Of a stretch of 64,000 bases of DNA, positions 4,757 through 42,790 are shown piece by piece. Each line of letters begins with the position of its first letter. Within the stretch, counting starts at the first letter, position 1. The position numbers were made by a program, and so were the translations under genes. Source of the stretch: Candidatus Aenigmatarchaeota archaeon (GTDB lineage: Archaea; Aenigmatarchaeota; Aenigmatarchaeia; CG10238-14; SCSR01); NCBI GenBank assembly GCA_038998625.1, contig JAWADS010000001.1:1-64000 (forward strand), in the 5' to 3' direction. Below the pieces are notes generated by a model. The model did not search any database. It was given only the letters and a program-made list of their open reading frames with translations, and was not told the DNA's origin.

Positions 4757-4791
4757 TAAAAATTTAAACTTTAATCTTTATATTCTGAAGT

Positions 4792-7489: not shown

Positions 7490-8003
7490 GTATAAAACTA
7501 ATGAAGCTGCTATAGTAGTAGGTTTAGATAAATATCCTTTCGAAGGCGTTGACATAGTTCATGATTTAGAAAAAACACCATTACCTTTTAACGATAATGA
7601 GTTTGATGAAATTATAGCTTCACATATTCTTGAACATATACAAAATTTTATTCCTTTAATGGAAGAGTTGCATAGAATTTTAAAACCTAGCGGTATATTG
7701 CACATATATGTCCCTCATGCAAGCGATTTGGGTGCCTTTGGTCACATAGATCATAAAAGATTTTTTACTATAAGGACTTTTTCTCATTTTACTGAAAATA
7801 ATCCTGAAAATCAATATTCAAAGGCTAGATTTAAGATTTTAAAAGTTAAGTTGAATTTTATTGCAAGAACTTCTACTTCAAATAAATTTTTGAATTTTGT
7901 TTTTAATCCTATTTTGAATTTTAATCATAGATTTTATGAAAAGTTCTTATTTAAACTAATACCTGCGGGAGAAATTTATGTTCAAATGCAACCTATAAAA
8001 TAG
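7452..8003 (+). CDS. Class I SAM-dependent methyltransferase
   Basis: LDLGCG motif I, HILEH, RILKPSG. Confidence 0.85.
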   Translation: MKKILDLGCGRNKYKTNEAAIVVGLDKYPFEGVDIVHDLEKTPLPFNDNEFDEIIASHILEHIQNFIPLMEELHRILKPSGILHIYVPHASDLGAFGHIDHKRFFTIRTFSHFTENNPENQYSKARFKILKVKLNFIARTSTSNKFLNFVFNPILNFNHRFYEKFLFKLIPAGEIYVQMQPIK

Positions 8004-8013
8004 GTTTTGTTAT

Positions 8014-8961
8014 ATGATTAAAGTTTCAGTTATTATATGTACAAGAAATAGACTAGACGAATTAAAAAAATCATTACAACGTGTTTTAAATCAAAAGTTT
8101 AAAAATTATGAAGTAATTGTTGTGGATAATGCAAGTACAGATGTTAGTATTAAAGACTATGTTCAAAAAATGTCCAAAATATCAAAAAAGCTAAAGTACA
8201 TATCAGCTCCAAAAAAACCAAATTTGCCATATGCTAGAAATGTTGGTTTAAAGTATGCTAAAGGTGAAATAATAGCATTCATTGATGATGATTCTTTTGT
8301 TAGTAAGAATTGGATAAAAGAGGTTGTCAATTGTTTTAAGGATGAAAGTGTTGGAGCAGCTGGAGGAAGAGTAGTTATTCCAAGAAATTCTAATTTATTT
8401 GAAAATGAATATTTGAAAAGCAAAGGATTGAAAAGATTTTTTTATGAAATGTTTGCTTTATTTATAGACTATTATGGTAAACCAGGTTCAATCAAAAATT
8501 CTGGTCAAGTAGTCGCTTTCTTTGATTATAAAAAATTTATTTATATCGATCACGTATGGGGATGTAACATGTTTTTTAGAAAAGATGCTTTAGAACGCGC
8601 TGGTGGATTTGACGAAGCATATGAAAATTATCCATTAAGAGAAGATACAGATATGTGTGTTAGAATAAAAAAATTAGGTTATAAAATTCTTTTTAACCCT
8701 AAAGCTAAAGTTTTTCACAAATTATCAAGAAAAGAAGTATTTCCTAGAATGAATTTTTATTATAGAAATAAACATCACATTTATTTTGTTTTTAAAAATA
8801 AACTGATAAAAGGTTTCTCAGGTTGGATAAAGTTTATATTACAGCAAATTTCAGAAGTTTTATTTTACTTTTTATATTCAATGATTAAAAATAAACCTAG
8901 TATTTTGATTGATTCTTTTAAAGGAAAAATTGATGGTTTTAGAACAATAAAATACTTATAA
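8014..8961 (+). CDS. Glycosyltransferase family 2
   Basis: SVIICTRNR, VVDNAS, FIDDD, GCNM, EDTD. Confidence 0.9.
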   Translation: MIKVSVIICTRNRLDELKKSLQRVLNQKFKNYEVIVVDNASTDVSIKDYVQKMSKISKKLKYISAPKKPNLPYARNVGLKYAKGEIIAFIDDDSFVSKNWIKEVVNCFKDESVGAAGGRVVIPRNSNLFENEYLKSKGLKRFFYEMFALFIDYYGKPGSIKNSGQVVAFFDYKKFIYIDHVWGCNMFFRKDALERAGGFDEAYENYPLREDTDMCVRIKKLGYKILFNPKAKVFHKLSRKEVFPRMNFYYRNKHHIYFVFKNKLIKGFSGWIKFILQQISEVLFYFLYSMIKNKPSILIDSFKGKIDGFRTIKYL

Positions 8962-23472: not shown

Positions 23473-25707
23473 ATGCCAGTAGAATATGAAATTGTTGATA
23501 AGGTTTTAAAGATAAATGCTCGAAATTGGGCGATTTCTTCAAGTATTGAGGATTCAGAAGCTGCGATGGCTGTTGTTATTGATAGGCTTATGGAAGCTAA
23601 AGATATTGAAAAGATAATAATTTCGGATGTTAGAGATAATGAATATGATTACACACAAGTTAAAATTTTAAAAGAAATAGCAGATGCCTATGAAAAGCTT
23701 TTAAGTGTTGAAAATATTTTGAATAAAAATTTTGGTTGTGAACAGCATGCTGCCCAAAGAGTTTCTCAAATAAAATTTTTAATTTTTGAAGTCTTAAGGA
23801 AAGACCCTATTCTTGCTTATGCAAGGGTAAATATGCTAATAACTTTATTATTAAAAAGGATTTTATATCAAAATGAAAAGGAGCAGAGTTGTAGTTATAA
23901 TTATTTAAATAATGTTTTATATCCTATAAAAGAGGCTTTAGAGGCCACAACTTTAATTCAAAGGGTCAGGCCTTATTTAAGATTTTATAGATTTGGTGAT
24001 AGAACTCTTTACAGAGAGATATTTTTCCCCATCGTCAGACCTAGCTTTATGCAAACAAGCTTTAAGATTAAAATTCCCTTTGGCTCAGAGCTTGTTGATA
24101 AATATTACATTCTTGACGATACATTGGTGCAAGTATTTAAAGTTCCTGGAAACGTTAGATATTTGTATCTAATTATTCCACCAGAATTTAGGCTTTCGGA
24201 GGAAGATTATAAAGTTCTTGATTTAGCTAGAAAATATTTAGTGGAGCACAAACCTTTAGAAGAAATTACTGAGCCAGAAAAAACTAGAGAAATTTTTATA
24301 GCCTATGGAAAAGATTTAATAAAAAACATAATTAGAGATTTGGGGTTGAAGGTAAGTGAAAAGATTGATACTTTAGCTTCGATATTGGCTAGATATACTG
24401 CTGGTTTTGGTGTATTAGAGTTATTGTTATCAGATGAAAAAGTTCAAGATGTGGTTATTAATTCACCTATAGGTTCTAATCCTATTTATATTTATCATTC
24501 AGATTTTGAAGAATGCGAAACCAATTTAATCCCTAGTTTGCAAGATGCTGAAAGTTGGGCAACACGTTTTAGATTATATTCTGGTAGACCTTTAGATGAA
24601 GCAAATCCTGTTTTAGACACAGAACTCAATTTACCTTGGGGCAGAGCTAGGGTAGCAGCAATAACAAAGACATTGTCCCCTTATGGTCTAGCTTTTGCTT
24701 TTAGAAGGCATAGAGAAAGGCCATGGACCTTTCCTTTATTTATGAAAGTAAAATATTTTGACCCATTGTTTGCTGGCCTAATGAGCTTTATCATCGACGG
24801 CGGAAGGTCTTTATTAATTGCTGGTGGTCGTAGCTCGGGTAAAACTTCTCTGCTAAACGCTTGTATGCTAGAGATAATGAGAAAGTTCAGAATAATTGTA
24901 CAAGAAGATACTTTAGAGTTAAATGTACCTCTAATGATACAACTTGGTTATAATGTACAAAGATTGAAATCTCGCTCTGTAATTACAAAGGTTGAAATAG
25001 AGCTACCTCCAGATGAAGCTTTAAGGACTGCCCTAAGGCTTGGAGATTCTGCTTTAATTGTGGGTGAAGTAAGGTCTTCGGAAAGCGTTGCTTTGTTTGA
25101 GGCTATGAGGATCGGTGCCTTAGCCCATACAGTTGCAGGAACAATACATGGTGAATCAGCTTATGGAGTTTATGATAGGGTTGTTAATGATTTAGGAGTT
25201 AAGCCCACAAGTTTTAAGGCAATAGATTTAATTGTTTTATCTAATATGTTGCGCTCACCAGATGGATTGCATAGATTCAGAAGGGTTGTTGAGGTTACTG
25301 AATTAAGAAAGAAATGGAAAGAAGATCCTTTAGAAGAGGGAGCTTTTGTTAATTTAATGGAATATTCAGCTAAAGAAGATAGGCTTAAACCAACTGATAT
25401 TTTAATTTATGGTGAATCAGAAATTCTAAATGAAATAGCTAAAAGAGTTAGAGAATGGAAAGGAGCTTGGGATTTGGTCTGGGAAAATATTTTACTAAGA
25501 GCCAAAATTAAACAGGCTATGGTTAATTTTGCAGAAAAATTAAATAGACCAGAAATTTTAGAGGCAGATTGGGTTGTAGATAGCAATGAAGTATTTCATT
25601 TAATTTCCGATCAAGTTTTACAGGAAGTTGGAAGCTTAGATTCAAAGTTGATTTATGAAAGATGGTTAGCTTATTTCAAAGAAAAATTAAAAGCTAGAAT
25701 TAAATAA
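23473..25707 (+). CDS. Type II/IV secretion (type IV pilus assembly) ATPase, VirB11/TadA/ArlI superfamily
   Basis: Walker A GGRSSGKT, Asp box EDTLEL, Walker B LIVGEVR, His box GTIHG; long N-terminal extension. Confidence 0.93.
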   Translation: MPVEYEIVDKVLKINARNWAISSSIEDSEAAMAVVIDRLMEAKDIEKIIISDVRDNEYDYTQVKILKEIADAYEKLLSVENILNKNFGCEQHAAQRVSQIKFLIFEVLRKDPILAYARVNMLITLLLKRILYQNEKEQSCSYNYLNNVLYPIKEALEATTLIQRVRPYLRFYRFGDRTLYREIFFPIVRPSFMQTSFKIKIPFGSELVDKYYILDDTLVQVFKVPGNVRYLYLIIPPEFRLSEEDYKVLDLARKYLVEHKPLEEITEPEKTREIFIAYGKDLIKNIIRDLGLKVSEKIDTLASILARYTAGFGVLELLLSDEKVQDVVINSPIGSNPIYIYHSDFEECETNLIPSLQDAESWATRFRLYSGRPLDEANPVLDTELNLPWGRARVAAITKTLSPYGLAFAFRRHRERPWTFPLFMKVKYFDPLFAGLMSFIIDGGRSLLIAGGRSSGKTSLLNACMLEIMRKFRIIVQEDTLELNVPLMIQLGYNVQRLKSRSVITKVEIELPPDEALRTALRLGDSALIVGEVRSSESVALFEAMRIGALAHTVAGTIHGESAYGVYDRVVNDLGVKPTSFKAIDLIVLSNMLRSPDGLHRFRRVVEVTELRKKWKEDPLEEGAFVNLMEYSAKEDRLKPTDILIYGESEILNEIAKRVREWKGAWDLVWENILLRAKIKQAMVNFAEKLNRPEILEADWVVDSNEVFHLISDQVLQEVGSLDSKLIYERWLAYFKEKLKARIK

Positions 25708-25739
25708 AAATCATTTGATTCAAATCACAAAATATTTTT

Positions 25740-27689
25740 ATGTATGAGAAAGAAAAGAGTCATTTTAGAAAAGAGAAAAAGATATTAATCTACGAAAAAT
25801 TGTGCAGTATTTTTAACAATTTCCCTTCCATTATTCCTAATTATTTTAAAAGGAAATATGATGAAGCAATAATTTTTTCACATATCGATGTTAATTCAAA
25901 TAGTGCTTTTTGGTTAGGAATAACAATACCTATTCTTATATTAGCTATACCTTCCTTGATATTAAGTCTTTTCAATTTATTATCTCCTTCGATTTTTTTG
26001 GCCTTTGTCTTTTCGGCAGCTTATTCTTCATATTATTTCTTAAGCTTTCCTTTGAACTATGCTACTGAATTTAGGTTAAAGGCCACTTCAGAAATGGTTT
26101 TATGTGTAAATTATATGGTAATAAGTCTGAGAATTTCTCCGAATTTAGAAAATGCTATAAAATTTGCCTCTGAAAATTTAAAGAGTGCATTGGGCTACGA
26201 TTTGAGAATGGTTTTGTGGAATGTCTATACAGGAAAATATTATTCTACCCAAGAAGGTTTTGATCATTTTATTAACAAATGGAAAAGGGAAAACGAAGAA
26301 TTTGCAGAAGCCTTAACTCTGTTAAAATCTGCAGTTTTTAAAACTGCTGAAGAAAGGGAAAGGTTTTTATCTAATGCATTAAGAGTGATAATTGACGGAT
26401 CCAAAACAAGGATTAAAAAATACTCAAGAGAATTAAGGGCTCCAATTGGTGCAGTAAATGCTCTTGGCATATTGCTTCCAGCTTTAGGTCTCGTTTTGAT
26501 TTCTGTTTTTGCTTTTTTCCTACCTTTTAAAATTCCAGCCATTTCTTTTGTTTTAGTTTTTAATTTGATTATACCGGTTATAATTTATTCTTTGTTGAAT
26601 AACATCCTTTCTAAAAGACCATTTTCCTTTCCAGTACCAGATATAACAATTCATCCAAAGTTCAAAAAAGAAAAAACAATTTTGAAAGGAATAATTTCTC
26701 TATTACCTTTTATAGCTTTCTTATCTTATTCTATTCTATCTTTAAGCAGATTACAGAAAGGAGATTTTTTAGGAGAATTAATTTATTCTTTGTTAATAAT
26801 ACTCGGCTTAGCTTTTTCTATCATCTTATATGTTTTGTTAATCCATTATCCAAAACTCAAATTAAGGAATGAAATTGAATCTATTGAGTCTGAATTTCCC
26901 GATGCTTTATATCAATTGAGCTTTCAATTAGAAAAAGGATTGCCTATGGAGAGCGCCATTGAATCAATTTTACCTAGAATTAAAACATTACATGTTAAAA
27001 ATTTCCTTAAAAAAATTAGGGAAAATATATTAACTTTAGGGCTTACGTTTGAAAGTGCCATTTTCGATAAAAAGTTGGGCGCTATATACTATTTTCCTTC
27101 TAAACTTTTAGAAAGTATAATGGGCATGGTAGCTAGCATTATGAAAAAAGGTCTAAAAGAAGTATCTAGTTCTATGAGAACTGTATCCAAATATTTATTG
27201 GACACTCAAGATGTAATGGAAAATTTTAGGGATATTTTGAGCGAGTCTGTGGCAGAAATGACCATTCAAAAATATTTACTTTTTCCCATCGTTTCTGCTG
27301 TAATAATTGCAATAATTGCGATGATATTTCAAGTTTTCTTTATTTTAGGAAATCTGTCAGAAAAATTTATTAAGGGATTAGAAGTGCCTACCGATGTAGG
27401 GGAAATAATAAGTGAAGAAATAATGTTCGGGTTTTTAAATCTGTCTAATGTTGTGCCTACTTATCAAATTCAGCTGATTGTCGGGTTTTATTTGATTGAG
27501 ATGATTTTTATTTTATCTTCGACTCAAATTATAATTAGCAGAGGAGATGATGTAATATTAAAAAGCGTAGACTTAATGAAGAGTTTAATTGTTGCCATGA
27601 GCATTTATTCTTTAGCTTCAATCCTATTTTACATAGCTTTTTCTGGTTTAGCTTCTTCTGTCGTCACCAATCTGGGGCAAGTAGGATAG
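25740..27689 (+). CDS. Type IV pilus membrane platform protein (TadC/ArlJ/T2SSF-like, duplicated domain)
   Basis: Two soluble domains (PNLENAI; EFPDALYQL..G.PMESAI) separated by TM blocks; follows the ATPase. Confidence 0.85.
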   Translation: MYEKEKSHFRKEKKILIYEKLCSIFNNFPSIIPNYFKRKYDEAIIFSHIDVNSNSAFWLGITIPILILAIPSLILSLFNLLSPSIFLAFVFSAAYSSYYFLSFPLNYATEFRLKATSEMVLCVNYMVISLRISPNLENAIKFASENLKSALGYDLRMVLWNVYTGKYYSTQEGFDHFINKWKRENEEFAEALTLLKSAVFKTAEERERFLSNALRVIIDGSKTRIKKYSRELRAPIGAVNALGILLPALGLVLISVFAFFLPFKIPAISFVLVFNLIIPVIIYSLLNNILSKRPFSFPVPDITIHPKFKKEKTILKGIISLLPFIAFLSYSILSLSRLQKGDFLGELIYSLLIILGLAFSIILYVLLIHYPKLKLRNEIESIESEFPDALYQLSFQLEKGLPMESAIESILPRIKTLHVKNFLKKIRENILTLGLTFESAIFDKKLGAIYYFPSKLLESIMGMVASIMKKGLKEVSSSMRTVSKYLLDTQDVMENFRDILSESVAEMTIQKYLLFPIVSAVIIAIIAMIFQVFFILGNLSEKFIKGLEVPTDVGEIISEEIMFGFLNLSNVVPTYQIQLIVGFYLIEMIFILSSTQIIISRGDDVILKSVDLMKSLIVAMSIYSLASILFYIAFSGLASSVVTNLGQVG

Positions 27690-28730: not shown

Positions 28731-29132
28731 ATGGTTTTAAATAAAAAAGGTTTATCAACTTTAACTATTGTAGTAATAGCTCTTATAATTGCAATCATAT
28801 TAGGTTTTTTAATATTTTCAGGTTCTGCTTTTCAACTAGGGCGTGGAACGAGTATAGGTGCGGGAATAGGTTGTTCTCAAGTTCTTAGAGCTATGTGTGC
28901 AGATTATAAGGAGCAAACTAATGGATTATATGATCCCGGAAGATACCCAACAATACTTCAAGCGCATCTAAAGAATATAGAGGATAATTGTAAAAGGGAA
29001 GAGGTATATTGTGATCCAAGTAAGCCAGGTTGTAGAATTAATTTAAATGATGTAGGAAATGTAATAGTATATTGTTGTGGTTCTGTTGGTGGCGACATAT
29101 CTGTATGTCGGCCTCAAGCGCCTCCACAATAA
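28731..29132 (+). CDS. Type IV pilin-like protein (class III signal peptide), Cys-rich
   Basis: NKKG|LSTLTIVVIALII; eight Cys. Confidence 0.75.
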   Translation: MVLNKKGLSTLTIVVIALIIAIILGFLIFSGSAFQLGRGTSIGAGIGCSQVLRAMCADYKEQTNGLYDPGRYPTILQAHLKNIEDNCKREEVYCDPSKPGCRINLNDVGNVIVYCCGSVGGDISVCRPQAPPQ

Positions 29133-32226: not shown

Positions 32227-34086
32227 ATGAAAGGGATTTCTACTTTACTAGTTTTGGCCGCAATTTTTTTATTTGTAAGCTTGCTTATAAATTTTATTTT
32301 CTTTCTTAATGTTTTGTCAAGAGAAGAAAATTTTGTTAGAACAGTAAGGGAAATGTATATCTATCAAGGGATAAATTACATCGAGCAATTTAAGAGGGCT
32401 TTTCCTTTTTTAATCGAATACTCAATTTATAAGACTCTATCTCATAATGGAGGAGAACTATGTTCTTTCGGCCAAAGCACTTTTATAACTCCTTTAGCAG
32501 CCCAAGATTTCTTAAGCAGAAATCGCTTACTTACTATTAATAATGTTCCCGCAGGTAGTATTCATACATCCCTCTATTGGGTTTTACTATATTTTGACAA
32601 TTATCATAATTATTTAAATAAAATTGCCGAATTAACTTCGATCTTTTCTAGGATTCAACGCATCGTCTTCGATTATACCCCCGGGGTTAAAGTTGATGGT
32701 TATGCTGTGGATGATAAAATATTAGTAACTTCTGAAAATACAATATCAAAACTTTTGCCAAACAATTTAGGAATTTTAAATGAAACCTTAAATGCTTCTG
32801 TCGAATTAATCATGAATTTTATTCAACTCCTCGATAGAGCAGACGAAGAATGGTTAAATCAACCAAAATGTAGTGAGAGGGATTCTCTAGTAAAAAGTAC
32901 AGCTGAGGCCTTTGAATGTAGCGAGGAAGGATCTTTTACCTACTCTTCATTAGAAGAATGTGAAAATGCTTGCGTATATATGGAACCATCAAGATGCGTT
33001 TATATTTTACAGCAAGAAATTGCTGGTGCTATAGGTGTACCATTAGGTTCAGATGTTAAAAACATTGATAAAGTTAAGGGAAGGTCAGTTGCTATAAGAG
33101 AATATACTAATCTAGGTGTCGAAACAAATTATCTTTTAGGATATTGCGTTGATAGTGGTTGCGATTGTTCTAAAAAAGAGTGTGAAGAGAAGGATGATGA
33201 AGGAAATTGTATTGAAGAAAAGTGTGTAGAATGGACTAAGAAAGTTAAGTGTGAATACAAAAATTGGAGGGCAAGAGCAGGTTTATCTATCACAGAAAAG
33301 GATGAAAGGAATTTTTACCCTGCTTCGAATGATTGGGTGCAATCACAATTTAGTTTTAGTATGGTTTTAGGGCATTTGGATTTAGGAACCAGAACTACAT
33401 TAGACACTTGTGCTACTAGAAAAATAATTGAAGCCCAGTTGGAGGAAGAGTGTAAAAAGTCTGGCGGAACTTGGAATCCAGATAAAAAGCAATGTGAAAA
33501 TTGTCCAGATAGGAAAGTTTTCTACAAAGGTAAATGTGTAGAAAAATCTATTGTATGTAAAGAGACAGGTGGGACTTACAATCAAGATACAGACACATGT
33601 TCATGTCCTGATGATAAATTACTTGTTCTAGAAGCTTATTGTATAAATAAAAAAGAAATTTGTGAAAGCGAAGATGAGAATTTGGGTATAGTCAAAGGTA
33701 ATTACAACCCACAGACAAATGATTGCGAATGCCCTCAAGATACTATTGATATGGGTCCTTATTGTTTATCAAAAAAAGCAGCTTGTACTCAAAGCGGTGG
33801 AACTTATAATCCAAATAATCCGAAAAAACCTTGCGAATGCGATGCAAATAAGGGTTTAATTTCTTGGGGGGATGTTTGTGTAAGTAAGAAGGAGGCTTGT
33901 GGTTTTAGTGCTCCAGATAAGGGAATAAAAGCCGGTACATATGATGAAGTTAATAGAGTTTGTGATTGCCCTAATGGAACTAAATACAATGAAGAATTTG
34001 GAATTTGTGTAGAAGCAAAACTAGTATGTAGTTGTGCAAAAAATGTTGTGACTAACGAAGTAATCTGTAGTTGTTCAGAAGCTTAA
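32227..34086 (+). CDS. Large pilin-like adhesin with Cys-rich EGF-like repeats
   Basis: MKG|ISTLL class III-type signal; five C..G[TN][YW][ND]..C.CP..C repeats. Confidence 0.75.
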   Translation: MKGISTLLVLAAIFLFVSLLINFIFFLNVLSREENFVRTVREMYIYQGINYIEQFKRAFPFLIEYSIYKTLSHNGGELCSFGQSTFITPLAAQDFLSRNRLLTINNVPAGSIHTSLYWVLLYFDNYHNYLNKIAELTSIFSRIQRIVFDYTPGVKVDGYAVDDKILVTSENTISKLLPNNLGILNETLNASVELIMNFIQLLDRADEEWLNQPKCSERDSLVKSTAEAFECSEEGSFTYSSLEECENACVYMEPSRCVYILQQEIAGAIGVPLGSDVKNIDKVKGRSVAIREYTNLGVETNYLLGYCVDSGCDCSKKECEEKDDEGNCIEEKCVEWTKKVKCEYKNWRARAGLSITEKDERNFYPASNDWVQSQFSFSMVLGHLDLGTRTTLDTCATRKIIEAQLEEECKKSGGTWNPDKKQCENCPDRKVFYKGKCVEKSIVCKETGGTYNQDTDTCSCPDDKLLVLEAYCINKKEICESEDENLGIVKGNYNPQTNDCECPQDTIDMGPYCLSKKAACTQSGGTYNPNNPKKPCECDANKGLISWGDVCVSKKEACGFSAPDKGIKAGTYDEVNRVCDCPNGTKYNEEFGICVEAKLVCSCAKNVVTNEVICSCSEA

Positions 34087-34119
34087 TACGTATATTTTTA
34101 AAAAACCAAATTTTAAATA

Positions 34120-34497
34120 ATGAATTGGGAGGAATTATATAAAAAATATTCAAAGCCAAAAAAGAAAAAAATATTTCCTATTTTATTAGTTATAGTCTTT
34201 TCGACTCTATTTTTTCTCTTCATATTATATTATTTTTCTTTACCAGAATTTATAGAGCCACAGGCTGAAATTGTAAGTGATGTAATAACTCTACCTTCTA
34301 TAAAGGGCGAGCATTGCACAATATATATAACTGGTCCAAATAATATAATAAAATTATTTTCGGAATATGATTGTAGCGAATATCAAATTTTTAGGTTTGA
34401 GATTTTAGATCTTTTTTCGGATATTAAAGGTAGGTATAAGTTAGTTGTTGTTTCTGATTCAGGAAATAATTTGACGAAAAACTTTTTGGTGGTATAA
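34120..34497 (+). CDS. Single-TM protein with small beta-rich domain
   Basis: Basic N-terminus plus one TM; the stop overlaps the start of the giant ORF (TAATG). Confidence 0.65.
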   Translation: MNWEELYKKYSKPKKKKIFPILLVIVFSTLFFLFILYYFSLPEFIEPQAEIVSDVITLPSIKGEHCTIYITGPNNIIKLFSEYDCSEYQIFRFEILDLFSDIKGRYKLVVVSDSGNNLTKNFLVV

Positions 34498-37400
34498 TGA
34501 AAAAAAGTATTTCAATTTTTTTAATTATAACTTATTTGCTCTCCATTATTAAAGTACCAATAGCTGTCACGCAGAGTACAGATAATTTTAGTGATGAAGA
34601 TGTAAAGAAAATTTTAAGCAAAGGAGCAATATTTTGTGTAAAAGATGCTGTAGAGGTATCTAAAGATGTTTATAAAGTTGTATGTTTAATCTCTCCTAAA
34701 AATTTAACCAAAGTAAAATTTGAATTTGGGCCCGCATTTAGTTTTGGAAGAATGGAGTTTCTAGGTTATGAAGCCACAGATAAGATTGAGTTTGTGAGCA
34801 AATTTAAGAACTTTCTGGAGTTTGAAGTATTTCCCACTTCTAGAGTAGGATTTACTATAAATATAAAAGCAAATTTCAGGCCCAATTTCAAAGTAACTTC
34901 CACTCTACCTGCTTATTACTTTAATGATTTGAAAGAACTTTTTGATGCTATAGATTCTATTCATTCTATAGAAGCATTGGAAGTTTTAAAATCTAGTTGT
35001 GAGGTGGCGTTTGAGAAAGAATGTGTTTTAGAACATTTTATTACTAATTCCAGTGCTCCGGCGAAATATATAAATTTAACTAGTGATGAGTTAAGCAAAT
35101 TGGTAGCTTTAGGAGAATTTTCCAAAAAGATAGATGGTGCTGATGTAAAATTTGTGCTTAGTTTTGAAAATAATGAAGTAAAAGTTTATGATAAGGAAAA
35201 TTATGTCGGAAACTTTTATTTGCATTCAGCTTTTGTTCCCGTTAAAGCGCCAAGCCTCCCTGAAACGAATTTAACATCTTTAGAAACGATTAAAGAAGTT
35301 ACCTTATTTTTCTTGAATTATGAATTGAAAATAAATGGAACTGACGTTTATATAACAGAGTACGAAGATTTAGATTTGTTGGCAGATGAAATATTTTCTG
35401 GCAAACTATTTCCAATTACAGGTTCTTTTATTGCCACAGAAATTTTTAATAAGATAAAAGAAGAGTTGCTAATTAAACAAAGTAAACAAAGAGATTTAGC
35501 AGAAAAAATACATACTTTTGAAAAATTCGCTACCGACTATAATGTAAATATATTTAAACGCATAATGATTGCTATCTTAAACGAGATAAATAATAATATA
35601 GAATTAGGTGAAATAGAGGAAGCTAGTCAGCGTATAACAAAATTGAAAAATGCAGTTGGGGAATTTTCAAAAAATGCAGTTGGGGAATTTAAAGATTATT
35701 TCCAAGATTTAGAGAAAGAACTAACTAAAATAGAAGAAACCATTAAAACAGATTTTAAAAGTGCACTAGATTATGTAAGAAATTTAAAAGAAAAAATAAC
35801 TTCTGAAACAATTAATGATTTCCTTCAAGTTGCAAAGTCGAAAGGAGTAGATATATCTAAAAAATTTACAGAGAAAGATGGTAGGAGAGCACCAAAAGTT
35901 GTAAATGTTGTAAGAACAAGCGTAACAGAATTACCACCATCTATAAAAGATAAAATCACGTCACCTATATTCGTTCCTAAAGGACAACCTGATTTAAAAG
36001 ATATGAAAAAATTCTTTAAAGAGCTCGCTTTTAGGGATTATATTGACCAAGGCATTTATTTGTTCTGGGGTGATTACTCAAAGGTCCCTAGAGAATATTT
36101 ACAAGTATATGTTTCTGTAGCTAAGGAAGATTATCAAAAGGCTTTGAAGTTTATACAATTTGAACTGAAAAGAAATAATATACCTCATTTAATGGTTAAG
36201 CCAGAGCTTTATGATGAAGTTAAGAATGGAAAATATGTGATAATTCTTTTACGTAATAATGACGATTTGAGAGTGGTAAGGACCATAGAAGATATCTTAT
36301 ATAATCTAAATATTAGACCTGGGCCCAAGCCTTTAATAAAGGGAATATCTTTAGATAAGTATATAATAAGTAAATATACTTTTGGCGCGTGGGAAAACAA
36401 TTTTGGTGGAGAAAAAAAGATTAAACCAATTCTTGCATATAATTCTGATACTGGGAAGTTGGAAACTATATCTCCAGAGACACCTTTGCTTCCAAAAGTT
36501 GTTACACAATCTGATTTATTGAATAAAAATTTCAAAGAGGGAGATGTGATTGCTTATTTTGCTCCTCATGGTGATGCTAGAATATATTTAATGGGGGAAA
36601 TAAAATCCTTTGACGCAAGTAAAAAAAGAGTTCTCGTTTCAAATATTTTTGGTTCAGAATTTGAGATCCCAATAAATTGGGTATCAAATACACCAAACAT
36701 TCATATCTTTTACGATAAACATAAGCAAATCGAAATACGACAATTATCAGAAAAACTATGGAGGAATTCTCTATCAAAAAATCTCGCCTCTAAATTAAGC
36801 ATATCGGATGTTGAGCTTTTGTTAAAGAATGGATTTTACCTTAAAGGTGATTTAGTTTATTACCTTTCTGAAGATAAAAGAATTTATAGCTTACCTCTCG
36901 ATGATTTTCTAAAATCTCCCTCAATTGAAGATATTTTTTGGGATACATATAAGAATCATTTAATAGTTATTCCTAATTCCCTAAGCGAAAAATATCCTGC
37001 GAGACTTAAAGGTCTTGCTATAACTAAATCTGTTTATAATGATATAACTTCTTGGATTAATAACATCCAGCCCGGTCAACAGAAAGGTTTAGTTGCTTTC
37101 CTTACAATGAATGAAAAAGGAGTGATAGACAAAGTTTGGTTAAAGGGCATAACTGATCCTGTTTATGAAGGAGTGACTCTTGGTTCTATCCAAGATTTCC
37201 ATAAGTATATATTAGCAAAATATTTGAACCCATTAGAGTTTGGTCTACATGGAAAACTATTGGCATATTTCGTACCAGAAGGCTTCTTACCAGATTTAAC
37301 CTTAGGGCAACTTTTAGCGTCTTTTGAGTATGATAAAAAGGATGTTTTTCATTTATTGCTTATTTCAAGAGAATTAGGTGAAGTAAAATTTAATTTTTAC

Positions 37401-40400
37401 AGAATTGATTTTTCCAAGTTATCGAAGGATGATATTCAATGGCTAAAATACATAGCGAATGAATATCGAAGGAGAACTGGAACAGAATTAGCTTTATCTA
37501 CAATAAGTGAGCAATTGGAGGCGCACCCAGATTTAAAAGCATATTTTGAAAAACATTCTAATTTCCACAAGATTGGTACACAAAATATTGAAATGGTTCA
37601 TAAAATTGATGAAACAAAAGCTTTCAAAATTGCACTACTTAATGGTGAACAAGCCATAGGTGGTTTGGAGAGATCTCTAAAAAATCTTAAAAAAATGATA
37701 TTTTTTGGCAATGAGTTAGATCTTCAAACTGGTTTTACATATAGATATTCTTTTAGATACGCTTCTAATATATATACAGAAATACGCAGAAGAGTGGATC
37801 TATGGGACAGTATTTTAGATAATCTGTTAAAAAGCGGTGAGATATCCCAAGAAATTTACAATTCTTATAAAAACATAATAAATAAAGTTTACGAAATAGG
37901 ATTAACCATTGAGCCAGGGAAGCCTATAAAGGATACTTTGAAAAAAATTGATGAAGCTTTAAAGTCAATAAAGAATGAAAAGAAGACATTATTTAAATTA
38001 TTATCCTATCAATCTAAAAAATTATCCATAGAGCCCAACACTGGGTTTAGTGAGGTCGCTAAAAATATAGAACCTACTAAATTACCTGAAAATATTGAAG
38101 AGTCCATAGAGAATTCTGCAATCGCTAAAGTAGCAAAAGAAGAAGCTGAAAAGGGCATAAAAGAAATTCCAAGTCAAGAAGAAATTCTACAAAAAATTGA
38201 AAGGGAACAAGAAAGATTAATATCAGAAACACCAAGAACGAGTTTTGAGCCTACTGCTCAAAAAATTGGTAAAGTAGATGAATTAACTTCCAAGATTGAT
38301 AATTATATCCTATCTAGTAAAATAGCAGATTCGTTAACAACAGAAAATATTAGAAAATTGTTGGATGGAAAAGTAGTTTTTGTTGATGATAATTATTTGC
38401 TTGTATTATCTCCAAAAGGTCAATTAACTTTAGTTCATTTTCCTGATAAAACGTTTTTATATTCTTCCGATGGAACTAAGGCTGTTATAAAAATGAGATC
38501 CACACCCTACCTAACACCAGACGATTTAGATGAATTAATAAAAAAGAACATACCTATGGTTTATCCGAAATATAAGCTTCCCGATGAAGTTCTTGTAATA
38601 GGAATTGTGGATGGAAGGCCTGTTGAAAAACTTTATGATTTGAGAGAATTCAAAAAGTTTGTTGAAAATGAGGGAACGCCTTCAGCAAAAATATCAAGAG
38701 AATTTAGAGAAAAATTTAACTCTTATTTAGATTCTATTCGTGGAACAGAAGAAGAAGTTGTAAAAGCGTTAGATAAATTTTTCAATATGAAAGGGTTGCC
38801 GGAAAAATCTGATTTAACTATTGCGGCAGGCCCGGCAGTAAAAGTAAAACCCAAATTACTCAACATCGATGAAGATTATCTTCAATTCAGGTTAGGAATT
38901 TCTATTATTAATGCCGAGACGGCACAAAACGTACTTTCACCAATATATGCTATAAGGGACGATTTAGAAACTAATTTTAAGTTAATGGGAATAAAGACCC
39001 CTGATGACATAGCAGATGGTATGACAATAAAAATAAAAGGAAGAGATTATGTTTTACGTAAATTACCTAATAACCAAATTTCTATCGAGCTTGCAGTTTT
39101 TCGTGAGGGTGATCCATCCCTTTTAGAATTCCAAAAAGTGGGCACATTTTATCTTGTTGATGGTGAAGTTAAAGATGCGTATTCATGGAATAGAGCGGTG
39201 GCTTCTACGTTCAAAGATGTAAAGGCTTCTCAAGACCTCAGGGATGGCAGATATATTCTGAATACAAATAATTACAAAATTGAAAAAATGGATTATGGCT
39301 CAGTAGTGTTTGAAAATAATAGGCCAGCTATTTTTAGTATTGTAGGGGCAAATAGGGAAACCATGTATGTACCTATTTCTATTGATAGATCGCAATTTTT
39401 GCAAAAAACTTTCTCAGAAATCGGAACTGCTGGGATAGGAAAAGAATATGCATTCGGTTCAGACAATGGAGATGTCTATAGATTTACCAAAAGACATTGG
39501 GAACCCGATTTAAAATGGGAAATGGAAGTTAATGGAAAACCGGCTGGATTTTTGACGGATGAAGGATTAAAAACAAAAATAAGAGAATTAGTGGGTTCTG
39601 GTTATAATCCATTAATTCCCGCTTATAGGTTTAGTCCAATCGATGTTGAAAAAGAAATAAGAGGACTTTCAGAGCCTTATTATTCTAAAACTTTCTCAAA
39701 TGGTCAAGAAGCTTTCAGACTTAGAAATGTTGATGGTCGCATTATATTAGAGACAGGGGGGATGCAACCAAGAACAATAACTGTTGAAGAGGCTCGGTCA
39801 CTTCTAGCAACATCTAAAAGAGTAGAGATATTAAGCACAGATGGTGCTAATTTAATATCCCAAACATCTTTTTGGAAACAAATATCAAGGCCAGTAGGAA
39901 TATTAACAAAAGATTTTTATCCTTTAGTTGGTCCGGCTGATTTTATTGCTTTTGGCGCTATAGCAGCATTTTCTCTTTATAGTATAACTGAAAATAGGGA
40001 AGAAATGAATAGGAGAATTGTTTATAATACGGTTGAAAATTTTGCGGTCGAGCCTCTATTAGTTACAACAATTGCAAGGGGTTTAGGTCTGAGAGCAGCT
40101 TTCAGTGGCGCAAGGGCTGCTGTTGCGGGCGTAGGTGGCGCAATTACTCTAGGAATTTTAACGGCTGTAGTTGCTGCAGAAATGGTTGCAGAAGATACAA
40201 TAGAAGAATATCTAAGAGGTAATAGGTTAAATGATATGGGTATACCTATACCTAATGATTTGGGGTCAGCTTTAGGTAGAGTTTTTGGAGGATATTGGGA
40301 CTTTTTAATAAATTCAAATAGTGAGCAAACTCTAGAGAGTAGCAGTATGTTTAATACAGTAGCTACATCCATTTATAAAGACTTATCTAATCAAGCATTA

Positions 40401-41903
40401 AAAAACTTTCAAAATTATATAGATTCAAAGATTGGTAATAAAAATAATGAAATCCTTAAGGGAATACAAAAAATCATAGAACTTCACGGCACAGGTCCTA
40501 AAGGAAACTATGTAGACATAATCGATGGTACGGAATATGTGTGGTTTATGGAAGAAGGTAAGTTTGAAGTTAAGTATACAAATGAAGCCGGGAATAAAGT
40601 TACAATAACCTATAGAATAACTGATGCGGGTATTGTACCTACTGAATATAAGGAAGAAGGTAAAGTGGGCTTTGATGCTCTCGGTTGCTTAACACGTCCC
40701 TTAGGTTTAGGTGGGAATTGTTGTTTAAATCTAGCTGGGTGTGATGTAGGAATAATAGAAGAAAGGAAGATTAGTTTCTCTGATTTACAACATGAGGCTT
40801 TCAATAGGGCCGATGATTTAATTGTTGATAGAGTAGAAGGAGATTTAAATAGATTGACTGCCTTTACAAAACCCGATGAAATTCTTAATGAAGCTCAAAG
40901 AATAGCCGATAAACTAAATTCAGATCCAAATTTTGTTCAATATTATGGTAGGCCCATCACAGCTTCAGAAGTTATTGAACTTGCAAAACCAAAAATTAAA
41001 AAAGATGCTGAAACAGAATGCCTACAAGCATTTGCTGGAGATATTTATGGTTTCTCTTCACAAGAAGCTTATGATAAATGCGTTGAAGATACATATAAGA
41101 AAAAAGTTCAGGCATTCGAAGAAAGTCATAATCAGATAGGATTTAAAGATTGTTCACAAGCTGGTGGAACATGTATGCCACCTATACATGCTGTGGAACG
41201 TGGTTGCGAGAGGTTTTACTTTTATTGCGATAGTTCACGAATGTGTTGCAAATCCCAAGTAAGTACACCGCAAGAGCCTAAAGGTCAAGAGACAATCAAT
41301 ACTTACGAGGCATGTGAAGGCTTACGTAACCAGGGACTAGATTCAGGTTGCTATCTTGGCAAATGCGGTCAAGGTTACATTTCAGCAGGCTATTGCGATA
41401 AGGCAAATGACGTTTATTGTTGTGTTAAGGCAGAAGGGACTGGCCAAATCAACACTTACGAGGCATGTGAAGGCTTACGTAATCAAGGACTAGATTCAGG
41501 TTGCCATCTTGAAAAATGTATTCAAGGTTACACTTCAGTAGGTTATTGTGATCAGGCAAATAGCGTTCATTGTTGTGTTAAAACAGAAGATTGTACTTCA
41601 AAGGAATTGAAAAAAGAATGTATTAGTGATAAAAAACTAAGGATTACTGGTTATGTTTGTCCTTCTGGCTATGGTAGTGATATAAATTGTCTGAAATGTG
41701 TGGAGGGTTCTGCGGAGATAGAATGTAAAATGGGATGCAGCACCAAAACTAACAACTGTGTTGAAGAAAATTTTGTACCCATAGGAAATTATATTTGCCC
41801 AAAAGACGCTTGCAGTAAAAGCGGTGAATTTTGGACTTGTGATTTGGGTAGATGTGAGGCTCTACAAGGCAGCAGTGCACCTACTGCACCTACAAGTGAA
41901 TAA
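34497..41903 (+). CDS. Giant (2468 aa) exported mosaic protein with Cys-rich C-terminus
   Basis: Uninterrupted 7.4 kb ORF, N-terminal signal sequence, coiled coils, internal Gly/Ala hydrophobic hairpin, defensin-like six-Cys modules. Confidence 0.85.
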   Translation: MKKSISIFLIITYLLSIIKVPIAVTQSTDNFSDEDVKKILSKGAIFCVKDAVEVSKDVYKVVCLISPKNLTKVKFEFGPAFSFGRMEFLGYEATDKIEFVSKFKNFLEFEVFPTSRVGFTINIKANFRPNFKVTSTLPAYYFNDLKELFDAIDSIHSIEALEVLKSSCEVAFEKECVLEHFITNSSAPAKYINLTSDELSKLVALGEFSKKIDGADVKFVLSFENNEVKVYDKENYVGNFYLHSAFVPVKAPSLPETNLTSLETIKEVTLFFLNYELKINGTDVYITEYEDLDLLADEIFSGKLFPITGSFIATEIFNKIKEELLIKQSKQRDLAEKIHTFEKFATDYNVNIFKRIMIAILNEINNNIELGEIEEASQRITKLKNAVGEFSKNAVGEFKDYFQDLEKELTKIEETIKTDFKSALDYVRNLKEKITSETINDFLQVAKSKGVDISKKFTEKDGRRAPKVVNVVRTSVTELPPSIKDKITSPIFVPKGQPDLKDMKKFFKELAFRDYIDQGIYLFWGDYSKVPREYLQVYVSVAKEDYQKALKFIQFELKRNNIPHLMVKPELYDEVKNGKYVIILLRNNDDLRVVRTIEDILYNLNIRPGPKPLIKGISLDKYIISKYTFGAWENNFGGEKKIKPILAYNSDTGKLETISPETPLLPKVVTQSDLLNKNFKEGDVIAYFAPHGDARIYLMGEIKSFDASKKRVLVSNIFGSEFEIPINWVSNTPNIHIFYDKHKQIEIRQLSEKLWRNSLSKNLASKLSISDVELLLKNGFYLKGDLVYYLSEDKRIYSLPLDDFLKSPSIEDIFWDTYKNHLIVIPNSLSEKYPARLKGLAITKSVYNDITSWINNIQPGQQKGLVAFLTMNEKGVIDKVWLKGITDPVYEGVTLGSIQDFHKYILAKYLNPLEFGLHGKLLAYFVPEGFLPDLTLGQLLASFEYDKKDVFHLLLISRELGEVKFNFYRIDFSKLSKDDIQWLKYIANEYRRRTGTELALSTISEQLEAHPDLKAYFEKHSNFHKIGTQNIEMVHKIDETKAFKIALLNGEQAIGGLERSLKNLKKMIFFGNELDLQTGFTYRYSFRYASNIYTEIRRRVDLWDSILDNLLKSGEISQEIYNSYKNIINKVYEIGLTIEPGKPIKDTLKKIDEALKSIKNEKKTLFKLLSYQSKKLSIEPNTGFSEVAKNIEPTKLPENIEESIENSAIAKVAKEEAEKGIKEIPSQEEILQKIEREQERLISETPRTSFEPTAQKIGKVDELTSKIDNYILSSKIADSLTTENIRKLLDGKVVFVDDNYLLVLSPKGQLTLVHFPDKTFLYSSDGTKAVIKMRSTPYLTPDDLDELIKKNIPMVYPKYKLPDEVLVIGIVDGRPVEKLYDLREFKKFVENEGTPSAKISREFREKFNSYLDSIRGTEEEVVKALDKFFNMKGLPEKSDLTIAAGPAVKVKPKLLNIDEDYLQFRLGISIINAETAQNVLSPIYAIRDDLETNFKLMGIKTPDDIADGMTIKIKGRDYVLRKLPNNQISIELAVFREGDPSLLEFQKVGTFYLVDGEVKDAYSWNRAVASTFKDVKASQDLRDGRYILNTNNYKIEKMDYGSVVFENNRPAIFSIVGANRETMYVPISIDRSQFLQKTFSEIGTAGIGKEYAFGSDNGDVYRFTKRHWEPDLKWEMEVNGKPAGFLTDEGLKTKIRELVGSGYNPLIPAYRFSPIDVEKEIRGLSEPYYSKTFSNGQEAFRLRNVDGRIILETGGMQPRTITVEEARSLLATSKRVEILSTDGANLISQTSFWKQISRPVGILTKDFYPLVGPADFIAFGAIAAFSLYSITENREEMNRRIVYNTVENFAVEPLLVTTIARGLGLRAAFSGARAAVAGVGGAITLGILTAVVAAEMVAEDTIEEYLRGNRLNDMGIPIPNDLGSALGRVFGGYWDFLINSNSEQTLESSSMFNTVATSIYKDLSNQALKNFQNYIDSKIGNKNNEILKGIQKIIELHGTGPKGNYVDIIDGTEYVWFMEEGKFEVKYTNEAGNKVTITYRITDAGIVPTEYKEEGKVGFDALGCLTRPLGLGGNCCLNLAGCDVGIIEERKISFSDLQHEAFNRADDLIVDRVEGDLNRLTAFTKPDEILNEAQRIADKLNSDPNFVQYYGRPITASEVIELAKPKIKKDAETECLQAFAGDIYGFSSQEAYDKCVEDTYKKKVQAFEESHNQIGFKDCSQAGGTCMPPIHAVERGCERFYFYCDSSRMCCKSQVSTPQEPKGQETINTYEACEGLRNQGLDSGCYLGKCGQGYISAGYCDKANDVYCCVKAEGTGQINTYEACEGLRNQGLDSGCHLEKCIQGYTSVGYCDQANSVHCCVKTEDCTSKELKKECISDKKLRITGYVCPSGYGSDINCLKCVEGSAEIECKMGCSTKTNNCVEENFVPIGNYICPKDACSKSGEFWTCDLGRCEALQGSSAPTAPTSE
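35646..35690 (+). repeat. In-frame tandem duplication, 24-bp period
   Basis: aaaaatgcagttggggaattt at 35646 and 35670 (KNAVGEFS-KNAVGEFK). Confidence 0.9.
41295..41589 (+). repeat. 153-bp (51-aa) tandem duplication of a six-Cys module
   Basis: Copies start at 41295 and 41448 (INTYEACEGLRNQGLDSGC...CCVK.E), with high DNA identity. Confidence 0.95.
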
Positions 41904-41935
41904 AGCTGTTAAATCTTTAATTACTAATATTATTT

Positions 41936-42790
41936 ATGGAAAAAGGTCAAGCAGGTTTAATAATTATTGCCGTAGTTGTTGTATTGGCCATAATAATTTT
42001 TATGTTTTCTTCATCTGGCCCTACCACAACCTTTCCTACTGGTGGTATAGGTGGTAAAGGAAGTGCTTTGAATATAGAGCAATTAAGGTTTAAACCTGAA
42101 GTCTTTTCAGGAGAAAGTATTGTTATCGAAGTAAAAATAAAGAATAGGGGTATATATGATGCTAAAAATGTTGTATTAAATCTTTTAGGCCTAACCGATG
42201 AATGGAAAATAGATGGCGAACCATTAACATCAAATCATCCTAAAAGAACAGTGAGTTTTCCAACGCTTCTAGGAGATCCAAAGCTAAATGGTGAAGAACA
42301 AATAGCTATTTGGCAATTAACAGTTCCAAATAAAGTAACTACCCTTACATATCCATTCACCATAAAACTTAATTATGATTATAAAAGTAGATACGAGGCA
42401 TTGGTTAGAACAGTTTCCCCAACTTTTAGAGAAAAGGGAAGGCTTCTAGATCAAAAGATTACTCCTGGACCCATAGTGGTTAGTCTCAAATCAGATGAGT
42501 GGCGCGTCATCGGAACTTTTACAAGTGTTGAATTAACTATTACTAATTCTGGAGGCGGAGAGGTAGTGGACAGAGTTATTACTTTAAAAAACCTTAAAAA
42601 TATAGAATGTCCGCAAACTACATTAACTTTTAGCACAAAAGATTCACAAATAGAAAAAGAAATAACAACAACATGTAAAATTCTTACAGGTTCGGTCCAA
42701 GAATTTAATGATATTGAAGTAAGTTTTGATTTAGAATATAGATATTCAATAAAACAAGATAAAAGCATAAAAGTTAAACCTTTAGCTTAA
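41936..42790 (+). CDS. Pilin-like exported protein with Ig-like/CARDB domains
   Basis: MEKG|QAGLIII class III signal; VKIKNRG..DAKNV and LTITNSGGG strands. Confidence 0.7.
   Translation: MEKGQAGLIIIAVVVVLAIIIFMFSSSGPTTTFPTGGIGGKGSALNIEQLRFKPEVFSGESIVIEVKIKNRGIYDAKNVVLNLLGLTDEWKIDGEPLTSNHPKRTVSFPTLLGDPKLNGEEQIAIWQLTVPNKVTTLTYPFTIKLNYDYKSRYEALVRTVSPTFREKGRLLDQKITPGPIVVSLKSDEWRVIGTFTSVELTITNSGGGEVVDRVITLKNLKNIECPQTTLTFSTKDSQIEKEITTTCKILTGSVQEFNDIEVSFDLEYRYSIKQDKSIKVKPLA

Follow-up and report, generated by a model that had tools for sequence, protein, structure and literature searches.

What is the longest open reading frame (ORF) of a 469-kb archaeal genome for? The ORF in question lies in the window analysed here, that is, the whole stretch of 64,000 nucleotides at positions 1 to 64,000 of contig JAWADS010000001.1 from Candidatus Aenigmatarchaeota archaeon (assembly GCA_038998625.1; 19 contigs, 91.8% complete). 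It encodes P0001, a protein of 2468 residues, with the runner-up in the genome reaching 1397. P0001 is read here, with moderate confidence, as a lineage-restricted, membrane-anchored giant surface protein, of which both arms would be exposed outside the cell for contact with a host or a surface. The evidence consists of the arrangement of hydrophobic segments and cysteines along the chain, of two full-length orthologs that repeat this arrangement, and of a gene cassette that recurs beside the more distant of the two.

Hydrophobic segments occur at only two places in P0001. The first comprises residues 5–23 (Kyte–Doolittle hydropathy, KD, 2.24) and is followed by AVTQ/S. The second is a pair formed by residues 1810–1828 (KD 1.59) and 1874–1892 (KD 2.07), with Gly and Ala accounting for 16 of the 34 residues at 1865–1898. 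The loop between the two segments is basic and contains the invariant R1839 and R1840; an invariant acidic helix (VAAExVAED..EE.LR) follows the pair. Cysteines are found at positions 47, 63, 168 and 176 and then again only from position 2064 on, with 36 of them within the final 405 residues. The Cys-free run in between measures 1887 residues, for which the chance probability is ~3e-8 at the genome-wide Cys frequency of 0.91%. Both full-length orthologs repeat this Cys pattern, to which P0005 adds the pair 1473/1477 and P0008 one Cys (position 1029). The signal sequence, the N-terminal domain with a few Cys, the Gly/Ala hairpin and the Cys-rich tail that had been listed in an original prediction, made from the sequence alone, are all borne out by this inspection. 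The Cys-free stretch is present too but exceeds the size of "about 1400" given there, and its description as cytoplasmic-looking is an interpretation rather than an observation: no hydrophobic segment is found between residues 28 and 1805 that could return the stretch to the inside.

From these segments a topology can be derived. With a signal peptide at the start and no hydrophobic segment until residue 1806, the N-terminal arm of 1780 residues would lie outside. Arg and Lys precede the second segment of the hairpin and a run of Glu and Asp follows it; by the positive-inside rule, this charge pattern would place the loop in the cytoplasm and the tail outside, which fits the 36 Cys of the latter. 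The hairpin together with its acidic helix (residues 1801–1936) shows the highest invariance of the whole protein among the three orthologs, and because it is the most conserved segment, it likely has a membrane role, be it in the cell's own membrane or in that of a host. Of the membrane-inserting segment proposed originally, the membrane role is hence retained as likely.

The relatives of P0001 are few. A word-based search across 5.8 billion clusters yielded a single one, P0005 (2328 residues), and HMMER, run exhaustively with residues 508–1700 against 1.84 billion representatives, returned P0005, P0006 and one spurious repeat protein. By cluster look-up, P0006 is a fragment of P0008 (2051 residues). 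Word-based searches aimed at relatives that are split, fused or modular returned none beyond P0005, and the P0001+P0005 alignment had no match when genome and metagenome contigs were scanned. The giant gene was not found in any of the genomes of 60 relatives, one of which belongs to the same genus (79% complete). The family is very rare and patchy, with three lineages among the collections searched. Within the species the protein is stable: other assemblies show 4 substitutions in 2468 residues (T346N, P466S, K615R and L801F). A record of the same protein in the cluster of P0001, P0010, lies on a contig of 622,054 bases; as this exceeds the whole 469-kb assembly, a more complete genome of the organism probably exists.

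The three full-length orthologs are collinear from the signal peptide to the last Cys. Identity between P0001 and P0005 amounts to 24–67% in ordered segments and to 22% in a charged linker. The orthologs differ by a helical insert of 257 residues that occurs only in P0001, by a Cys cluster (2063–2092) that is missing in P0008, by the number of six-Cys modules in the tail (three in P0001, four in P0005 and one in P0008), and by smaller gaps. In the ranking of invariance, the hairpin with its acidic helix comes first (34%); a β domain that lies behind it reaches 30%, the Cys-rich end 28% and the N-domain 27%. The final 93 residues of P0001 are 60% identical to P0005 and 33% identical to P0008.

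The genes upstream of P0001 recur as well. The small membrane protein P0002, encoded directly upstream, has an outer domain of ~85 residues with two Cys, and its TAA stop codon overlaps the ATG of the giant by one base (TAATG). When metagenomes were scanned with P0008, both ends of its gene were recovered (loci L021 and L020). Directly upstream of it (L021, 575–940), a protein of 121 residues is encoded that matches P0002 over 107 residues (37% identity, pairwise E 2e-25) and whose gene overlaps that of P0008 by the same TAATG; before it, a Cys-rich homolog of P0003 occupies the position that P0003 has in the window (26% identity over 113 residues, pairwise E 1e-7). Since the P0002 homolog and the TAATG are kept although the giants themselves are only 33% identical, the small membrane protein and the giant are co-inherited and translationally coupled; the coupling to a small transmembrane (TM) protein noted in the original prediction is herewith confirmed and extended to a distant ortholog locus. 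The conserved cassette is the strongest evidence that P0002 and the giant would work together and with pilin-like proteins. None of the 60 relatives yielded a homolog of P0002. A complex prediction for P0002 with residues 1790–2065 of P0001 scored 0.00, which speaks neither for nor against binding.

Downstream, the cassettes diverge. The gene behind P0008 is pilin-like and different from P0004, the downstream neighbour of P0001. P0004 homologs occur in 36 of the 60 relatives, all of which lack the giant; hence, P0004 is not a cognate immunity gene. In eight loci (L008–L015), the ORFs that match P0004 start in a lipoprotein-like manner (...FLSGC, ...LAGC), unlike the pilin-like start of P0004 itself, and several of these loci encode nearby a membrane protein of ~255–265 residues and a protein of ~354–391 residues. 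The gene downstream of P0008 (L020:2653-2976, forward strand) encodes a Cys-rich, pilin-like protein of 107 residues, MKGISKEMVILIL..., with an 8-Cys head that ends in ...CKACC; a relationship to the pilin-like ORF at 28731-29132 of the window, which also bears a YCC motif, is possible. Class III pilin signals consist of a short basic N terminus, a Gly or Ala at position −1 and a subsequent hydrophobic helix. In the giants, inspection by eye found no such signal: P0001 (MKKSISIF), P0005 (MKKLTSII) and P0006/P0008 (MRKIVALF) lack a K/R–G/A site, and all three orthologs start with MKK or MRK plus a hydrophobic stretch.

The following picture would account for these observations. A Sec-type signal peptide would export the N-arm of 1780 residues, and the hydrophobic pair at 1810–1892 would form a helical hairpin in the cell's own membrane, with a basic loop of ~45 residues facing the cytoplasm. 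Judged by charge distribution and Cys placement, the disulfide-rich C-arm of 570 residues would likewise be outside. The head of the N-arm would be a conserved β-rich domain and possible binder of sugars or surfaces, behind which noncatalytic scaffold domains would follow, including a relic of a HopA1/RamC_N phospho-lyase. Three small disulfide knots of β-defensin-like type would provide the C-arm with sturdy binding or spacer modules. P0001 would be made together with P0002 and the pilin-like Cys-rich proteins, next to a machine resembling a type IV pilus, and would, together with the pili, most likely mediate attachment to a host cell or a surface. Of the host-surface binding suggested originally, the contact role is consistent with the pilus context, with a weak adhesin- or carbohydrate-binding-module-like match of the N-domain and with the disulfide-rich tail; the toxin framework in which it had been placed does not hold.

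Several observations weigh against this picture. Typical archaeal surface glycoproteins are not known to be poor in sequons, and P0001 contains only six N-x-S/T sequons where ~15 are expected: all six are in the N-arm (11.1 ± 2.8 in shuffled sequences), and the C-arm has none (4.0 ± 1.8 in shuffled sequence). The structure models built for the two halves of the protein are poor (mean predicted local distance difference test, pLDDT, 53.5 and 40.3), and neither half gave a Foldseek match in the PDB at E 1e-3 or better. Classical adhesin repeats, such as Ig-like or cadherin, were not detected by family scans. The first segment of the hairpin is marginal (KD 1.19 in P0005, compared with the 1.59 of P0001), which leaves room for a single-pass topology with the Cys-rich tail inside. 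As the giant was not found in any of the 60 relatives, it does not belong to the core of the pilus system. Finally, the apparently intact site of a lyase-like domain in one ortholog hints at an enzymatic role that a pure adhesin would not explain.

Table 1. Features of the giant gene P0001, its cassette and the adjoining pilus-type genes, with positions in the window.
Feature	Position	Strand	Basis and remarks
Type-IV-pilus-type ATPase (744 aa), then 649-aa protein	23473..27689	+	Upstream of giant cassette
Pilin-like ORFs with class-III-like N-termini	28731, 29278(-), 30490(-), 30926(-)		By eye; between ATPase region and cassette
P0003, 619 aa, pilin-like (MKGIS + hydrophobic helix), Cys-rich (38 Cys)	32227..34086	+	Translation; first gene of cassette
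P0002, 125 aa, Lys-rich N-terminus, one TM helix at 18-36	34120..34497	+	Hydropathy (KD 2.96)
P0001, giant gene, 2468 aa	34497..41903	+	ATG start, open for 2468 codons
Residues 1-27, Sec-type signal peptide or N-terminal anchor	34497..34577	+	Hydropathy; no [KR]-[GA] class III pilin motif
Residues 28-250, conserved β-rich N-domain	34578..35246	+	27% invariant in three orthologs; Cys pairs 47/63 and 168/176 conserved
Residues 251-507, helical insert of 257 aa, P0001 alone	35247..36017	+	Gapped columns: P0005 223/257, P0008 239/257
Residues 508-665, degenerate RamC_N/HopA1-type phospho-lyase-like domain	36018..36491	+	Pfam matches in orthologs
Residues 666-730, small β-barrel, tentatively SH3/KOW/Tudor/Sm-like	36492..36686	+	Weak matches; predicted strands 684-725
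Residues 731-1175, conserved α/β region and helical bundle, no known family	36687..38021	+	30-46% identity to orthologs
Residues 1176-1268, charged linker, poorly conserved	38022..38300	+	2% invariant; pLDDT <50 at 1171-1200
Residues 1269-1800, mixed β-rich segments, most variable ordered part	38301..39896	+	7-13% invariant; low-confidence model
Residues 1801-1936, two hydrophobic segments (1810-1828, 1874-1892), basic loop, acidic helix	39897..40304	+	34% invariant
Residues 1996-2062, conserved β domain (GPKGNYVD...)	40482..40682	+	67% identity to P0005, 30% invariant
Residues 2216-2362, three six-Cys modules ending CC, β-defensin-like spacing	41142..41582	+	Cys spacing and predicted fold
Residues 2363-2455, terminal Cys-rich region, 12 Cys	41583..41861	+	60% identity to P0005, 28% invariant
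P0004, 284 aa, pilin-like N-terminus (MEKGQA + hydrophobic helix)	41936..42790	+	Translation; downstream neighbour

The domains of the N-arm are seen with unequal clarity. Searches of Pfam, NCBIfam and PHROGs with the whole of P0001 returned sub-threshold noise only (DUF4806, Cauli_AT and tape-measure matches at E 2e-3 to 5e-3), and sequence searches of the PDB with P0001, P0006, a profile of the N-half and a two-module stretch gave nothing credible. Among structural candidates, two Foldseek rows against viral structures at E 1e-4 were rejected as meaningless (TM-score ≤0.1, root-mean-square deviation, rmsd, 28–38 Å). VIA-align wide returned only generic helical bundles for the N-half model (Z 9.5–12.4, under the bar of the tool for helical folds). 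A search of the ESM Atlas with residues 1700–2468 reached a top score of 0.81, under the lead level of the tool. The N-domain is the best-modelled part: most of its blocks of 10 residues have a pLDDT of 66–83, with a dip to 53–60 at 151–180. Weak Foldseek leads (overall E 5.5e-3 to 4e-2) comprise the CLIPPER domain of an adhesin (9ifr, with E 5.5e-3 and TMt 0.55) and modules of the CBM2 and CBM3 type; because of their size they were assigned to the N-domain, as the Foldseek table is without query ranges. The N-domain may possibly be a binder of sugars or surfaces.

The coiled coil of the original prediction corresponds to a helical region at residues ~290–448 that is predicted at low confidence, lies inside the insert unique to P0001, and has generic four-helix bundles as its only structural matches. 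For residues 666–730, a profile match to Sm D2 is weak (E 0.12), and KOW/Tudor proteins, which appear in the same Foldseek table at E 0.015–0.06, may belong to this segment. The charged linker starts within residues 1171–1200, which is the last part covered by the first structure model.

Between insert and β-barrel lies a domain with a traceable ancestry. The Pfam family PF25816 (RamC_N; cut-off 27 bits) matches P0006 with 40.3 bits (3e-10) and P0008 with 39.5 bits (5.3e-10), P0005 at E 0.014 and P0001 itself not at all; the matches cover model positions 29–113 of 191 only, about half. A profile of the three orthologous sequences aligns to the lyase domain of ThurKC, a class III lanthipeptide synthetase, at E 0.05, across the GWK-x-H ... 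K ... GK motif region. A RamC_N search of 61 genomes returned no match, but its controls gave none either, which makes it uninformative. As P0001 is homologous across this region to P0006 and P0008, which pass the Pfam cut-off, its descent from a lyase domain is supported by transitivity. In the model, pLDDT in residues 508–665 is mostly <60, and SalKC and ThurKC appear in Foldseek only at E 0.016–0.067 and with low probability. In the available text on ThurKC, Ala variants of K65, H67, K94 and K117 lose or impair dehydration, and SpvC, OspF and HopA1 are named as the nearest structural homologues of its lyase domain (PMC10604976). These four residues align to Q536, Y538, L565 and K579 in P0001, three of four being substituted; P0005 has E, Y, I and K, and P0008 has K, H, K and K. 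The equivalents of ThurKC D152, R163 and R191 fall beyond the aligned range. No kinase family match was obtained for a kinase/cyclase beside the domain, and motifs of the HRD/DFG type were not seen by eye. Judged by these residues, the domain of P0001 is probably an inactive relic of a phospho-lyase, and that of P0008 may still be active. Of the enzyme-like cargo that the original prediction had placed in the middle of the protein, one enzyme-derived domain, from the family that includes the effectors HopA1, OspF and SpvC, is supported, with three residues critical in ThurKC replaced in P0001.

This domain bears on the explanation that ranks next to a surface protein, namely a device for membrane insertion or delivery, in which the hairpin would enter the host membrane in the manner of a fusion peptide or of a toxin translocation hairpin, create a contact or bridge there, and expose or deliver the enzyme-derived middle. 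We consider it unlikely, though worth weighing. No other part of the family is as invariant as the hairpin with its acidic helix, and the hairpin is rich in Gly and Ala, as viral fusion peptides typically are. A domain related to HopA1, OspF and SpvC lies in the middle, and P0008 keeps all four of the aligned ThurKC residues in it; a phospho-lyase needs phosphorylated substrates, which would be expected inside cells. Moreover, giant DPANN proteins are proposed, in the available text of one study, as secretion channels into hosts (PMC10266531). On the other hand, the replacement of three residues in both P0001 and P0005 (Q/E, Y and L/I) implies that P0001 probably has no active cargo, family scans detected neither a cleavage site nor any pore-forming family or domain for translocation, a translocation fold could not be recognised in so poor a model, and the charge pattern fits a second helix that stably runs from inside to outside.

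The tail of the C-arm contributes the second unexpected building block. β-Defensins follow the Cys consensus C-x6-C-x4-C-x9-C-x6-CC (6-4-9-6-0). In P0001, one six-Cys module has the spacing 6-10-6-5-0 and two have 11-4-9-7-0, the latter forming a tandem repeat of 153 nt; in the orthologs, the spacings are 6-4-9-7-0 (three modules) and 6-3-11-5-0 for P0005 and 6-3-9-13-0 for P0008. By this count, a β-defensin-type pattern is present. In a VIA-align wide search of the C-half model against 48,161 PDB chains, human β-defensin 2 (1fd3_A) ranks at the top, with a superposition of 41/41 residues at Z 7.0, an rmsd of 1.1 Å and 24% identity (model residues 998–1044, equivalent to protein residues 2266–2312); avian AvBD3 ranks 28th with Z 5.4. 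Herein, the module is modelled with a pLDDT of only ~45–58, a Z of 7 is within the common range of the tool, and the predictor may echo a known Cys pattern. The modules match no Pfam family and no PDB sequence at E up to 10, and with 4 K/R against 5 D/E they are not cationic. A profile of the module gave one weak partial match (E 0.0056) among 200 genomes of the phylum. Outside the window, the only other six-Cys pattern match of the genome is found on contig C5 (G000, C5:17981-19135, forward strand), in a secreted-looking protein, MSKKLLVLFFVV...AQS, with 21 Cys in the open frame and a module of 6-6-9-5-0 (CRKAGGSC...LICC).

According to the available text of a review, trans-defensins, which combine three antiparallel strands with three disulfides, arose and evolved exclusively in animals (PMC7203481); a search of literature titles and abstracts gave none on a prokaryotic trans-defensin. 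As the review places the fold exclusively in animals, convergence is the more economical reading of the likeness. A bolder reading would join both building blocks into a new kind of DPANN contact device, in which a fusion-peptide-like hairpin would enter the host membrane, defensin-type knots would grip the envelope, and lineages such as that of P0008 would present or deliver an active phospho-lyase of the HopA1/OspF type to proteins of the host. We regard it as a long shot. If true, it would provide the first trans-defensin-like fold outside animals.

Equally improbable appears a structural protein of the cell envelope, S-layer-like or a scaffold, that makes no contact with a partner. A large, secreted, membrane-anchored protein with a Cys-free middle, encoded by the largest ORF of the genome, could well serve such a role; the lack of a match in all 60 related genomes, the same-genus one at 79% completeness included, and restriction to three lineages among the collections searched do not fit it, and neither do the depleted sequons nor the many different domains in place of a lattice-forming repeat.

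Cargo of a mobile element or virus, inserted at the pilus locus and serving, for instance, in receptor binding or entry, is less probable again. Its extremely patchy distribution would suit such an origin, and so would the β domain behind the hairpin, where residues 1983–2058 weakly match pieces of phage baseplate or receptor-binding proteins, or Rhs pieces, in VIA-align (Z ~6). GC content along the giant gene climbs from 0.285 to 0.366 (34001-42000), the final bin with the 3′ end being the maximum of the window; the raised GC may reflect the Gly and Cys codons of the tail rather than a foreign origin. Against an import speak the lack of any integrase or transposase family match among the 60 window ORFs scanned, the recurrence of the same pilin-like cassette beside a distant ortholog, and viral structure and PHROG searches that gave nothing usable. 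ARAGORN found zero tRNA genes across the whole window. A scan for promoters and terminators gave counts equal to those of shuffled sequences and was not used; its consensus is bacterial only.

In polymorphic toxins, a conserved N-terminal and central part is followed by a hypervariable C-terminal toxin domain. The original prediction had tied its polymorphic-toxin architecture to modular exchange among orthologs; since the three orthologs are collinear and no cassette is exchanged, this reading is refuted on its own terms. A polymorphic toxin or contact-dependent inhibition protein with an immunity gene, to which the large secreted chain with unlike ends, the small neighbour gene and the domain of an enzyme family might point, can be set aside as extremely improbable: the C terminus of P0001 is among its better conserved parts instead of being a variable tip (its last 93 residues are 60% identical to P0005), no proteins other than P0001 and P0005 turned up when relatives limited to the C-terminal 679 residues were sought, P0001, P0005, P0006 and P0008 match no toxin, RHS/YD or filamentous haemagglutinin family in Pfam, NCBIfam or PHROG, and of the neighbours, the small upstream gene encodes a membrane protein co-conserved as a partner and the downstream gene is common without the giant.

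A surface protein for contact, as favoured here, finds its surroundings in a pilus-type locus. The 744-residue ATPase upstream matches T2SSE (PF00437, 2.2e-15), with FlaI/TadA matches in NCBIfam under their cut-offs. The 649-residue protein behind it gave no family match, and its translation contains many hydrophobic stretches, which make a pilus platform protein possible. Archaeal markers among the window ORFs include RadA, topoisomerase VI A and B, Alba, aIF1A, S3Ae, a tRNA-intron endonuclease and the AglB/STT3 oligosaccharyl transferase; the organism is an archaeon with a reduced, symbiont-type genome of the DPANN type. The AglB/STT3 gene and sugar-nucleotide genes lie at 2585-8961 of the window, yet the giant is poor in sequons.

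How DPANN archaea with tiny genomes grip their hosts, and possibly open them, is poorly understood, and the few candidates are giant, lineage-specific and mutually unrelated. The present family offers a compact case, with three full-length sequences and a conserved four-gene cassette. It provides three experimental handles: the internal hairpin as its most conserved part, the effector-family lyase domain, whose site is apparently kept in one lineage and lost in two, and the tandem disulfide knots. Should the knots prove to be trans-defensins in both fold and disulfide pairing, archaea too would have a fold that has been described as confined to animals, through convergence or deep ancestry. 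Should the lyase of P0008 be active, it would be a secreted archaeal phospho-lyase outside of lanthipeptide synthesis and bacterial type III effectors.

Set beside known systems, P0001 shares with polymorphic toxins that it is a large secreted multidomain protein with small neighbour genes; in contrast to them, it has no variable tip, immunity gene, RHS or filamentous repeats, and its orthologs are collinear. With ThurKC-type lyases, the family shares a domain for which P0006 and P0008 pass the PF25816 cut-off and whose profile aligns over the motif region. Unlike in ThurKC, K65 is replaced by Q/E, H67 by Y and K94 by L/I in P0001/P0005, and unlike in class III lanthipeptide synthetases, the domain is part of a secreted archaeal giant without an adjacent kinase/cyclase. 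β-Defensins are resembled in the six Cys ending in CC, with 6-4-9-7-0 in P0005 and 11-4-9-7-0 in P0001 against 6-4-9-6-0, and in the predicted helix and three strands of the module, which fit human β-defensin 2 in a low-confidence model. The modules of the giant differ from them in standing in tandem within a large protein instead of being free peptides, in not being cationic and in having no sequence-family match.

The SPEARE proteins of Nanohaloarchaeota are giant DPANN surface proteins of 8880–9409 residues with a proposed role in host contact, for which the available text describes arrays of Ig-like or adhesion domains together with a TM segment and, in the cytoplasm, an ATPase domain of the VirB4/TraG-like type (PMC10266531). 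No sequence relation to them was found, P0001 is much shorter with its 2468 residues, and family scans and hydropathy detected in it no Ig-like arrays, no VirB4/TraG-like or P-loop ATPase and no C-terminal anchor; instead, its anchor would be an internal hairpin with a second, disulfide-rich arm behind it. Both are by far the largest gene in a tiny symbiont-type genome, carry a Sec-type signal and a huge (predicted) ectodomain, and are organism-specific. The family of P0001 is read here as a rare and unnamed one of giant surface proteins from DPANN archaea, which are encoded in a conserved cassette with pilin-like genes and which contain two building blocks that were not expected.

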